DNA from: a virus
Length of the DNA: 64,000 nt
Virus record (IMG/VR): IMGVR_UViG_3300044999_000022
Span: 22,835 to 86,834 of that record
Direction: 5' to 3' (one strand)
The notes under the pieces are model-generated. The model saw only the letters and a program-made list of their open reading frames with translations, was not told the DNA's origin and did not search any database. A program made the position numbers and the translations under genes. Positions 41,169 through 41,237 of this stretch are shown here, piece after piece; the stretch's first letter is position 1; every line of letters begins with the position of its first letter.

Positions 41169-41237
41169 TGGACCGGACGGGATTCGAACCCGCAAAATCC
41201 GCGATAGGGTGCGACCCTACTCCTGAACTGCCGGCCC
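41169..41237 (-). tRNA. D-armless tRNA-Ala(CGC)-like / tmRNA-TLD-like RNA (69 nt)
   Basis: Acceptor GGGCCGG/CCGGTCC with G3:U70 and A73; T arm GCGGG TTCGAAT CCCGT; GTAGG GTCGCAC CCTAT stem-loop. Confidence 0.65.

Follow-up and report, generated by a model that had tools for sequence, protein, structure and literature searches.

The irregular tRNAs and allo-tRNAs of Acidobacteria (Mukai et al. 2017, PMC5389517) resemble the phage element described here in their soil and acidobacterial setting. According to that paper, Acidobacteria possess tRNA genes in which G3:U70 is combined with non-alanine or odd anticodons such as GCG and UUA, irregular-tRNA polycistrons occur in peat and forest-soil metatranscriptomes, and acidobacterial irregular tRNAs with G3:U70 and non-alanine anticodons cause alanine to be inserted in E. 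coli. Processing of tRNA-like RNAs by the enzymes of tRNA maturation has been described in two other systems. In the case of bacterial Y RNAs, PMC4201824 describes a tRNA-like domain, that of M. smegmatis YrlA, whose 7-bp 'acceptor stem' makes it a substrate of RNase P and of the CCA-adding enzyme, the RNA being cut by the former and receiving CCA from the latter. The mascRNA of the MALAT1 locus is processed by tRNA-specific enzymes and has no conserved anticodon loop (PMC9976931).

The DNA analysed here (the window, a single stretch of 64 kb) carries on its minus strand a 69-nt element at 41169-41237 that shares features with each of these systems. The phage itself is an uncultured 87-kb soil phage. 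Among the full-text papers listed, screened by title and the start of the abstract, no anticodon-less alanine-type tRNA-like phage element was found; the supplements of PMC5389517 (Figure S6) and PMC4201824 could hold related sequences.

Anatomy and predicted fold of the element

The element consists of an acceptor stem and a T arm joined by a segment that corresponds to neither a D arm nor an anticodon arm, with the following parts (basis of each assignment in brackets).

41169-41237, minus strand: anticodon-less, D-armless alanine-type tRNA-like element (TLS-A), tRNA positions 1-73 (sequence, shuffles, fold, pair table)
41231-41237, minus strand: acceptor 5' strand GGGCCGG, with G3 at 41235 (sequence, pair table)
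41194-41230, minus strand: 37-nt internal segment, folding as a single irregular hairpin where the D and anticodon arms would be (fold)
41177-41193, minus strand: T arm, with T stem GCGGG/CCCGU and loop UUCGAAU (sequence, pair table)
41169-41176, minus strand: acceptor 3' strand CCGGUCC (U70 at 41172) and discriminator A73 at 41169 (sequence, pair table)

In a pair table counted by position, from which the hostX_L137 row was left out, 12/12 pairs of the top-half helices form. The seven pairs of the acceptor stem include G3:U70 as the sole wobble, and the five pairs of the T stem include a G49:U65 wobble; the acceptor stem stacks directly on the T arm with the split 7/5 and without a variable arm. 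The alanine identity set, G1-C72, G2-C71, G3:U70 and A73, is present in full. CCA is not encoded, A73 being followed by C, U and A. A strict scan for such top halves, specifying a 7-bp acceptor with at most one G:U and, immediately next to it, a T stem of 5 bp and a TTCRANN loop, found exactly one site on both strands of the window, which is the element, whereas dinucleotide-preserving shuffles gave any match in only 2 of 200 (mean 0.01). The 7-bp acceptor with G3:U70 and A73 and the canonical T arm reported in a preliminary description are thus upheld, and the presence of a real, non-random tRNA-like element at 41169-41237 is confirmed.

Folded alone, the element adopts a minimum free energy (MFE) structure made up of the acceptor stem, an internal hairpin and the T arm (z -2.12; equally good folds in 7 of 200 shuffles), and all three persist in the MFE fold of the element within 191 nt of context. 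No D stem is present in the MFE or centroid folds. The preliminary description had placed 10 nt where the D arm would be; the D arm is indeed missing, but the two 10-nt stretches it took to be unpaired are predicted to pair with each other. The predicted internal hairpin has an apical stem UAGGGU/ACCCUA with a CGC triloop and a basal pairing AGUUC/GGAUU, the latter with pair probabilities of 0.59-0.90.

That same description saw a stem-loop displaying U33-CGC-A, from which the element might be a truncated tRNA-Ala(CGC) that still decodes, as D-armless mitochondrial tRNAs do. The letters U-CGC-A are found in the apical hairpin, and the alanine identity set would suit such a tRNA. However, the 7-nt loop is predicted to be closed to the CGC triloop by a Watson-Crick G:C pair (G32:C38, P = 0.998), and holding it open as GUCGCAC costs 7 kcal/mol (-22.8 versus -29.8 kcal/mol for the MFE fold). 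No stable 7-nt anticodon loop is predicted here and none is kept in relatives; loops in relatives and look-alikes are of 3, 6 or 8 nt and of unrelated sequence. In addition, the mitochondrial modes of ARAGORN (-mt, -mtmam) returned nothing at the element, their single call lying elsewhere, inside the downstream gene. Since the loop is predicted to be closed, the element should not be a decoding tRNA, and we regard that reading as highly improbable. By its modelled fold, it is a non-decoding tRNA-like RNA with an alanine-type acceptor/T-arm top half and an irregular hairpin.

General models of tRNA and tmRNA recognise the element poorly. ARAGORN made no call at 41169-41237 by default; at the 80% threshold (-ps80) it gave only a poor 'tRNA-?(ct)' with a forced poor D arm, and its tmRNA search (-m), even at -ps80, found no tmRNA there. 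A search of the whole window with Rfam in gathering mode gave 0 matches, although this mode missed even a 44-bit tRNA that a search of 1.6 kb with an E-value threshold revealed. Below gathering scores, the best match kept in the tRNA clan was to tmRNA (RF00023), which scored 21.5 bits (gathering score 47), and only the acceptor stem and T arm were aligned. Because lower overlapping clan matches were left out, any match to the tRNA model (RF00005, gathering score 29) is at most 21.5 bits, which further argues against a decoding tRNA; the element thus falls below the gathering scores of both models. The mascRNA model reached 16.9 bits (E 3.3).

The likeness to the tRNA-like domain of tmRNA, also proposed in the preliminary description, did not hold up at the level of the model: ordinary host tRNA-Ala genes cross-match RF00023 at 37.3 and 32 bits, above the score of the element, the phage has no SmpB gene, and no tag reading frame, resume codon or pseudoknots are found in the element, where only 37 nt separate the acceptor strand from the T arm. 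An identification as tmRNA was therefore rejected.

The untranslated array in related phages

The element is the last unit of an untranslated array of about 500 nt between two phage genes, with all of the genes and array RNAs in the same orientation. In the order of transcription, the locus reads as follows.

41663-42151, minus strand: upstream gene, 162 aa, with an acidic tail and no family (sequence)
41578-41657, minus strand: first tRNA-like unit of the array, with a D arm and 18 nt between the anticodon-stem strands (Rfam, ARAGORN, MFE fold)
41313-41577, minus strand: untranslated spacer rich in hairpins, separating the two tRNA-like units (sequence)
41245-41312, minus strand: long GC-rich hairpin closed by an 11-bp stem, its end 7 nt upstream of the element (sequence, fold in context)
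40742-41134, minus strand: downstream gene, 130 aa, no family, with a GTG start at 41134 (sequence)

The stop codon of the upstream gene lies a few nucleotides before the first unit, which is matched by the Rfam tRNA model at 44 bits with a 12-nt insert and called 'tRNA-Stop(tta)' by ARAGORN. The spacer has no Rfam match at E<=10 beyond noise. Downstream, a ribosome-binding site (GGAGG, 41145-41149) lies 20 nt after the element. Neither flanking gene was assigned to a family by Pfam or PHROGs, and the downstream protein has 46 homologues, some of them 60-65% identical. A crude consensus scan for sigma-70-type signals found no promoter-like or terminator-like sites on the minus strand between the flanking genes.

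Few relatives of the phage were found. Protein-pattern scans of IMG/VR yielded only 5 contigs and a metagenome scan 3 new ones, while the 1.6-kb region had no blastn match in INPHARED and no prophage relative was present among the GTDB species representatives. A blastn search of INPHARED with the 72-nt element matched 463 records, none covering >=80%, with generic phage-tRNA T-arm similarity among the matches listed. Attempts to extend the family by motif were equally unproductive: a gapped motif from the elements of two relatives (L012 and L015) matched at least 118 stretches in IMG/VR, none with an alanine-type acceptor, which are taken as chance matches, and a merged IUPAC pattern of their 3' ends matched 1 of 401 Acidobacteriota genomes, exactly to neither element.

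In all relatives, the gene order is kept as the 162-aa gene, the intergenic region, the 130-aa gene and an SNF2 helicase. At least one unit with a 7-bp acceptor, an adjacent T arm and an irregular body is found in five (L002, L003, L005, L012 and L015) of six distinct relatives, a count that covers those with a complete intergenic region. The exception is L006, whose intergenic region holds a single hairpin and no tRNA-like unit; the module is therefore dispensable in that phage. ARAGORN and Rfam recognise only the L012 tRNA among the units of relatives. Each unit starts a few nucleotides after a closed helix or a stop codon, and in all 8 phage units of the pair table N73 is followed by C. The layout of a hairpin followed by the element is also seen in L236 and in L003, L005 and L015.

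L015 and the pair L003/L005 have near-identical flanks around entirely different units. The borders of the swap fall at positions 1 and 73, and the unit therefore behaves as a discrete module. The identity elements also vary at this locus: G3:U70 with A73 is found in the window, L012 and L015, C3-G70 with U73 in L003 and L005, and G3-C70 with A73 in L002. Such variation at one locus fits a function that needs a tRNA shape rather than alanine. In L012 and L015, G1-C4, G3:U70 and A73 are kept while pairs 5-7 and the T stem differ.

Recurrence of the alanine-type top half

The top half of the element, 32 nt in two blocks (7 + 25 nt), is identical to that of an extra, CCA-less G3:U70 tRNA gene of Acidobacteriota, here termed tRNA-X. 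At ten tRNA-X loci, each from an Acidobacteriota species representative (L137, L145, L153, L157, L163, L170, L177, L179, L181 and L186), the T arm, acceptor 3' strand, A73 and following C are identical to the element without exception, and the acceptor 5' strand is identical in 8/10, with L157 and L179 reading GGGCCCG. Like the element, tRNA-X has no encoded CCA; unlike it, tRNA-X possesses both a D arm and an anticodon loop of 7 nt, which carries GUC or GCG together with U33 or C33. Homology between the middle of the element and that of tRNA-X was considered and rejected (z 1.3-1.7, reached in 113-230 of 2000 shuffles). Of the 47 tRNA genes in a complete Terriglobia genome, exactly 4 have G3:U70, namely the three tRNA-Ala genes and an extra look-alike gene whose top half is identical to that of the element. 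The alanine identity assigned to this RNA in the preliminary description is borne out by this restriction and by the complete identity set, and Acidobacteriota, or Terriglobia within them, provide a tentative lead to the host of the phage.

The same 32 nt recur with unrelated middles of 36-37 nt in a second phage lineage, on 5 IMG/VR contigs, and in 3 bacterial genomes (Demequina, Occultella and a Pseudomonadales MAG); the internal segment of the element has no significant similarity to the middles of the others. The shared top half is GC-rich and occurs in ordinary archaeal and CPR-bacterial tRNA-Ala genes as well, so that identity across lineages could reflect convergence or repeated capture.

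The chromosomal identity invites two explanations that require no function of the RNA as such. First, a chromosomal tRNA gene of Acidobacteriota has at its 3' end the same 27-nt stretch as the element has at its own, and 27 nt is a typical length for an attP core, suggesting that the 3' part of a host tRNA gene was kept as a phage attachment site for site-specific integration. Against this, the 95%-complete genome has neither a tyrosine integrase nor a serine recombinase (Phage_integrase and Resolvase were not found, nor were SmpB, PolyA_pol and TROVE), the acceptor 5' strand is present although attP has no need of it, species representatives hold no prophage relative, and the phage carries a ParB-like gene. 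An attachment site is accordingly very hard to credit.

Alternatively, the element may be a decaying tRNA gene, a captured host gene of the extra G3:U70 type that has lost its D and anticodon arms by indels and has no function of its own. In favour of this, both blocks and the following C are identical to tRNA-X, remnants of the D and anticodon regions are suggested by eye in a pairwise alignment, L006 does without any tRNA-like unit, and no close relative of the window phage was found. Yet none of the 32 top-half positions has changed while the middle is unalignable, with similarity not above chance, and an intact top joined to an unalignable middle is not the pattern of neutral decay. Moreover, the middle is a stable predicted hairpin, unlike random sequence, and units with an intact top and an irregular body are found in 5/6 relatives and in the second phage lineage. 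Decay thus seems quite unlikely to us.

A third possibility makes the alanine identity itself the function. Minihelices with G3:U70 were reportedly found by Francklyn and Schimmel in 1989 to be charged by AlaRS, and the element could be a trans-acting tRNA mimic that is processed, CCA-added, charged by the host AlaRS and active through its charged acceptor end. Such a mimic may serve as a decoy or sponge for AlaRS, EF-Tu, SmpB, or an acceptor-end toxin or defence nuclease, or may donate alanine to a non-ribosomal transferase. The full identity set and the confinement of G3:U70 in Terriglobia to the tRNA-Ala genes and the look-alike speak for this reading, as do the identical top halves with unrelated middles in the contigs and genomes above and the retention of G1-C4, G3:U70 and A73 in L012 and L015 despite differences elsewhere in the helices. 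The units of L002, L003 and L005 at the same locus, however, have no G3:U70, the phage encodes neither SmpB nor a CCA-adding enzyme, no conserved partner protein adjoins the element (both flanking genes being without family), and a GC-rich top half shared with archaeal and CPR tRNA-Ala could have arisen by convergence or repeated capture. We consider an alanylated mimic possible but on the doubtful side.

A broader version, to which we give a little less credence, is that a class of tRNA mimics with alanine identity and without an anticodon exists in soil phages and mobile elements, each an invariant AlaRS-competent minihelix with a freely varying hairpin, tailed with CCA and alanylated by the host and acting in trans. 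Members of such a class could decoy or saturate a factor that targets alanine-type ends (a toxin, a defence nuclease, or SmpB/EF-Tu), or could mimic the extra G3:U70 tRNA gene kept beside the tRNA-Ala set of Acidobacteriota.

A candidate processing module

The interpretation that we favour, and hold tentatively, is that the element is a processing module for RNase P and RNase Z, and that it may in addition receive a CCA tail and be charged with alanine. The array would be co-transcribed with the flanking phage genes, and host RNase P would cut at the 5' end of the element, leaving an upstream RNA that ends in the stable GC hairpin. A second cut after A73, by RNase Z or exonucleases, would release the downstream mRNA, which would keep a short leader, and the element would act as a punctuation mark of the tRNA type. 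The 69-nt RNA so released would possess all features known to be needed for CCA addition and charging by AlaRS; it would probably be CCA-tailed and might be alanylated, while being unable to read codons. As the phage has no gene for a CCA-adding enzyme and CCA is not encoded, tailing would depend on the host enzyme. We infer the steps of cleavage, CCA addition and charging at a locus whose anatomy, non-randomness, array position and recurrence in relatives are observed.

RNase P and RNase Z are also the enzymes that process mascRNA, to which CCA is then added. The layout at the phage locus fits a module of this type, as the GC-rich hairpin ends 7 nt upstream of the element and no promoter or terminator is seen on the minus strand. 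A pure requirement for tRNA shape, however, leaves unexplained the recurrence of an exact 32-nt alanine-type top half with unrelated middles, as well as the retention of G1-C4, G3:U70 and A73 in L012 and L015 where pairs 5-7 differ. Both observations hint at a role for alanine identity itself.

Such units escape tRNA finders and Rfam, yet within this phage group no other feature of the large, fast-evolving non-coding locus is as constant. If they are processing marks, they would be the equivalent, in a bacterial virus, of tRNA punctuation in mitochondria and of the 3'-end module formed by MALAT1/mascRNA, and would account for the way in which long non-coding arrays of phages are divided into units. 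Should alanine identity matter, they would represent a new kind of chargeable, non-decoding tRNA mimic, and would link phage biology to the poorly understood irregular tRNAs of Acidobacteria and to an unreported extra G3:U70 tRNA gene of that phylum.

Each of the known systems shares only part of this arrangement. The tRNA-like domain of tmRNA (RF00023) has, like the element, a G3:U70 alanine-type acceptor, a T arm, no D stem and a helix that replaces the anticodon stem, and a jumbo-phage tmRNA (L237) has the same 23-nt T-arm and 3' acceptor sequence; the short span between acceptor strand and T arm, with neither tag frame nor pseudoknots, sets the element apart. In the allo-tRNAs described in PMC5389517, the acceptor/T branch is split 8/4 or 9/3, the variable arm is long and the anticodon arm is functional, whereas the element is phage-borne, has the standard 7/5 branch and is without D arm, anticodon loop or variable arm. 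The YrlA Y RNAs (PMC4201824) are non-decoding tRNA mimics that also occur in phages, but the two ends of the RNA lie in the Ro60-binding stem and the RNA adjoins the Ro60 (TROVE) gene, whereas the element has its ends at the acceptor and no TROVE gene is present in the phage. Finally, the mascRNA/MALAT1 3'-end module (PMC9976931) resembles the phage locus in that a tRNA-like fold immediately follows the stable structure in which an upstream non-coding RNA ends; mascRNA is mammalian, nuclear, unrelated in sequence and reported as not aminoacylated, while the phage element has the full alanine set.

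Anatomy and setting of the tRNA-like element

The element at window positions 41169-41237 on the minus strand is a 69-nt RNA composed, as read from sequence, of the following parts.

Parts of the element, 5' to 3'
5' end of 41237-41169 (-): acceptor 5' strand, GGGCCGG
within 41237-41169 (-), after the acceptor 5' strand: internal segment of 37 nt
within 41237-41169 (-): T arm, with stem GCGGG, loop UUCGAAU and stem CCCGU
3' end of 41237-41169 (-): acceptor 3' strand CCGGUCC, then A73; C-U-A follows the element

All seven acceptor pairs are formed, and the single wobble is G3:U70. 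A strict scan of both strands of the window, for a perfect 7-bp acceptor directly adjoining a 5-bp T stem with a TTCRANN loop, returned this one site, and 2 of 200 dinucleotide shuffles contained any such site. The three-way fold is also the predicted minimum free energy (MFE) structure, whether the element is folded by itself or within 191 nt of context. On these grounds the element is taken to be real and not a chance match. The preliminary description was thus correct as to the 7-bp acceptor, G3:U70, A73 and the canonical T arm, which occur once in the window, and only part of its interpretation is borne out. The element is a novel form among already known tRNA-like elements and irregular tRNAs.

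One proposal had been a truncated tRNA-Ala(CGC). ARAGORN makes no call here in default or mitochondrial mode, and at an 80% threshold yields a poor, forced cloverleaf whose loop is 6 nt. The open 7-nt loop proposed (G-U-CGC-A-C) folds at -22.8 kcal/mol versus -29.8 for the MFE, in which the loop-closing G:C pair has a predicted probability of 0.998 and leaves a CGC triloop; the two 10-nt segments described as single-stranded are predicted to pair with each other. A decoding tRNA-Ala(CGC) is therefore very improbable. The other proposal, a likeness to the tRNA-like domain of tmRNA, fares no better. The Rfam tmRNA match reaches 21.5 bits against a gathering score of 47, and its alignment covers the acceptor stem and T arm only, skipping 300 model positions. 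Since the same model gives 37.3 and 32 bits to ordinary tRNA-Ala genes from a Terriglobia genome, the match signifies only an alanine-type acceptor and T arm. ARAGORN finds no tmRNA at the element, and a family search found no SmpB gene in the phage genome.

The 86.8-kb IMG/VR record containing the window is estimated to be 95% complete, with a GC content of about 59%. All genes around the element lie on the minus strand, in the order listed here.

Genes flanking the element
42151-41663 (-): 162-aa gene with an acidic tail, first as read on this strand
between the 162-aa and 130-aa genes (-): stretch of about 500 nt with no credible gene
GTG start at 41134 (-): 130-aa gene, 3' of the 500-nt stretch, with GGAGG at 41149-41145
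40706-38850 (-): SNF2-type helicase gene, after the 130-aa gene

The 162-aa and 130-aa products have no family match in Pfam or PHROG, and a ParB-like gene and a QueE-like radical-SAM gene lie in the vicinity. The element starts 7 nt past a hairpin (41312-41245, minus strand) closed by an 11-bp GC-rich stem, and 20 nt lie between its end and the ribosome-binding site of the 130-aa gene. A simple scan of the minus strand between the flanking genes revealed no promoter-like or terminator-like site. As a family search found no integrase in the phage genome, the possibility that the tRNA-like sequence is an attP site can be regarded as highly unlikely.

The first unit of the array, at 41578-41657 on the minus strand, is a tRNA with a D arm, an A7:G66 mismatch and 18 nt between the anticodon-stem strands. 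Searched as part of a short stretch, it scores 44 bits in Rfam, where the gathering score is 29; over all 64 kb, gathering mode returns nothing, as the speed filters lose this tRNA. ARAGORN reports it as 'tRNA-Stop(tta)' and gives its variable region 14 nt; in the predicted MFE fold the anticodon stem lengthens to 9 bp and its loop has 10 nt. The related phage L012 has a comparable tRNA at 618-706, which carries a 30-nt insert and scores 42.8 bits in Rfam.

Units at the same locus in related phages

Five IMG/VR relatives were retrieved with the upstream protein, and three further metagenome contigs with an alignment of the downstream protein. Gene order is kept among them; the intergenic region is shortest in L006, at about 150 nt, and longest in L005, at about 1020 nt. 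In these regions ARAGORN and Rfam together identify one tRNA, in L012. Of the six distinct relatives whose intergenic region is complete, five (L002, L003, L005, L012 and L015, the near-copies L004 and L014 being counted with L005) show one or two units in the acceptor plus T-arm scan, and L006 shows none. Outside this count is L017, whose intergenic region is cut off: its positions 1-1000 join a long ORF of unrelated sequence, resembling a membrane transporter by eye, to the last 200 nt or so of phage intergenic sequence, and the join is either an assembly chimera or a junction.

In each of the eight phage units tabulated, the acceptor has 7 bp and no more than one mismatch (at 7:66), the T stem has 5 bp and no more than one mismatch (at 49:65), the T-loop reads UUC(G/A)A, and N73, which is A in six units and U in two, is followed by C. 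In all eight, the body departs from a normal cloverleaf. The units at L012 715-781 and L015 1627-1692 are D-armless or anticodon-less and have G1-G2-G3-C4, G3:U70 and A73; relative to the window element, both sides of pairs 5:68, 6:67, 7:66, 50:64 and 52:62 are changed.

Near-identical flanks in L015, L003 and L005 enclose unrelated units.

Units compared between near-identical flanks
L015 1600-1700: Ala-type cassette, 66 nt
L003 3700-3810 and L005 3840-3945: 79-nt cassette with C3-G70, U73 and a GG-loop hairpin

The stem of the GG-loop hairpin covaries between L003 and L005. The difference from L015 is bordered by position 1 and by the nucleotide just past position 73, and the units thus behave as exchangeable cassettes. 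In all three phages the unit starts 4-5 nt past the closure of a long-range helix, with another hairpin directly 3'; in L012 the tRNA takes the unit's place, 6 nt past the helix, and the Ala-type unit follows 8 nt further. This arrangement, taken with that in the window and with the lack of promoter-like or terminator-like sites there, is the one to expect of a long transcript that tRNA-maturation enzymes divide up.

Other structures accompany the units. A large structured RNA with no Rfam match, common to the relatives, lies 3' of the tRNA-like unit, and several consecutive hairpins have stems of one and the same sequence (AACGUCCUG...CAGGAC) with different loops.

Structured RNAs in the relatives
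L002 3610-3870; L003 3810-4290; L005 3945-4440; L012 ~780-1160; L015 ~1700-2200: large structured RNA
L003 3390-3560; L005 3420-3690; L012 ~330-510; L015 ~1380-1460: consecutive same-stem hairpins

The large RNA has two conserved modules. One is a hairpin whose loop is of GCGUAA type; the other is a hairpin of about 100 nt in which CCUGGG.../...CCCAGG forms the closing stem and the motifs GUCGAUCGC and GCUGAUCCUG are conserved inside. The window spacer resembles it in style, without clear sequence similarity. A further tRNA-top-half look-alike with an over-long acceptor occurs in L015 (intergenic ~125-200, locus ~1275-1350), where an 11-bp helix (CCUACCUGAAG/CUUCAGGUAGG) surrounds a T-arm-like GUCGG-UUCAAGU-CCGAC that ends one base before the helix 3' strand.

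The same acceptor and T arm in other genomes

An exact search with the 23-nt T-arm and 3'-acceptor sequence, over one genome per prokaryotic species, matched 52 genomes, and the sites were typed by ARAGORN. Fourteen, without exception from archaea, CPR bacteria or unclassified MAGs, are ordinary tRNA-Ala genes, and 15 sites received no tRNA call, several of them archaeal and taken by eye to be intron-containing genes. Ten Acidobacteriota/Terriglobia genomes carry an odd 72-73-nt gene, here tRNA-X, with the same 3' part and A73 as the window element. Its acceptor 5' strand is GGGCCGG in eight of the ten, L157 and L179 having GGGCCCG with a C:C mismatch at 6:67. The gene has G3:U70 and encodes no CCA; a D arm is present, the anticodon stem is weak in several cases, and the anticodon loop varies with species (GUC in five, GCG in five; U33 or C33). 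The neighbouring genes differ between genomes and, judging by eye from first ORF residues, are housekeeping-like. No description of tRNA-X was found in the literature searched.

In the only complete chromosome (G001), all 47 Rfam tRNA matches could be typed, and the normal set includes tRNA-Asp(GUC) and three tRNA-Ala genes. CCA is encoded in 45 of the 47, and tRNA-X (L228) lacks it. Exactly four have G3:U70, namely the three tRNA-Ala genes and tRNA-X; G3:U70 is therefore an alanine mark in this lineage, and tRNA-X an extra alanine-type tRNA.

The window element and tRNA-X are identical over 7 + 25 nt plus the next C. Their middles align suggestively (z 1.3-1.7), but not above chance, as 113-230 of 2000 shuffles score as well, and no homology of the middles is claimed. 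That the element is a captured tRNA in neutral decay is improbable: zero changes over the 32 top-half positions (acceptor stem plus T arm) beside an unalignable middle fit poorly with decay. The tRNA-X match, together with the presumed soil and peat origin of such sample series, makes Acidobacteriota the tentative host.

Seven stretches of IMG/VR contain the 23-mer. Five are on contigs of another phage lineage (L233-L236, L238), in which a 69-nt element combines the identical 32-nt top half with a 37-nt middle that is unrelated; it lies just past a QueE-like gene (by eye, from first ORF residues) and 4 nt past a long hairpin, and ARAGORN does not call it. The sixth, L237, is a jumbo-phage tmRNA whose 5' strand differs, and the seventh, L239, is a tRNA-like gene of 96 nt (858-953) that shares the top half and lies inside a phage tRNA array, where ARAGORN proposes a candidate permuted tmRNA over 859-1510. 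Elements of 68 nt with the identical top half and no tRNA call occur in Demequina, Occultella and a Pseudomonadales MAG, their middles being related to each other (z 2.0-4.7) and not to that of the window element.

Elements sharing the top half
L236 2210-2278: 69-nt element of the second phage lineage
L144 (Demequina), ending at 5584: 68-nt element
L154 (Occultella), 7718-7740 region: 68-nt element
L171 (Pseudomonadales MAG), ending at 744: 68-nt element

A conserved terminator-like hairpin precedes the element in both actinobacteria (L144, L154), and near that of L154 are two ORFs, by eye resembling an integrase N-terminal domain and a transposase. Overall, the alanine-type minihelix is constant and the middle attached to it is free. 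As the helix is rich in GC and in some archaea and CPR bacteria also forms the top half of ordinary tRNA-Ala, its recurrence may reflect convergence or repeated capture.

Proposed processing and charging, and known systems

The best supported reading, at somewhat less than an even chance, makes the element a processing module in the shape of a tRNA. Cleavage by RNase P at the 5' end of the element would give the upstream RNA a 3' end formed by a hairpin, and RNase Z or exonucleases would cut past A73, releasing the downstream mRNA. This reading is favoured by the conserved top half on a degenerate body, the cassettes and their variable identity, the helices that abut the units, and the absence of internal signals. 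The main rival, which is possible but unlikely, holds that alanine identity is itself the point and that the RNA, once charged, serves as a decoy or adaptor. That the exact Ala-type helix recurs, and that L012 and L015 retain G3:U70, argues for it; the non-Ala units of L002, L003 and L005 argue against it. Under the processing reading too, charging of the released RNA would be likely, since all known requirements for CCA addition and alanylation are present. The element would gain interest if alanylation or a trans-acting role proved true.

Among the papers listed in the literature searches, none reports in its title or at the start of its abstract an anticodon-less Ala-type tRNA-like element in a phage. 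Irregular tRNAs and allo-tRNAs of Acidobacteria are described by Mukai et al. (PMC5389517); some of these combine G3:U70 with a GCG or UUA anticodon and insert Ala when tested in E. coli. The window element belongs to the same world but is not an allo-tRNA, having a 7/5 branch and no long variable arm. The tRNA-like domain of the M. smegmatis Y RNA is cut by RNase P and receives CCA (PMC4201824); the topology of bacterial Y RNA is different from that of the element, and a family search found no Ro60 gene in the phage genome. The closest functional analogue is mascRNA (PMC9976931).
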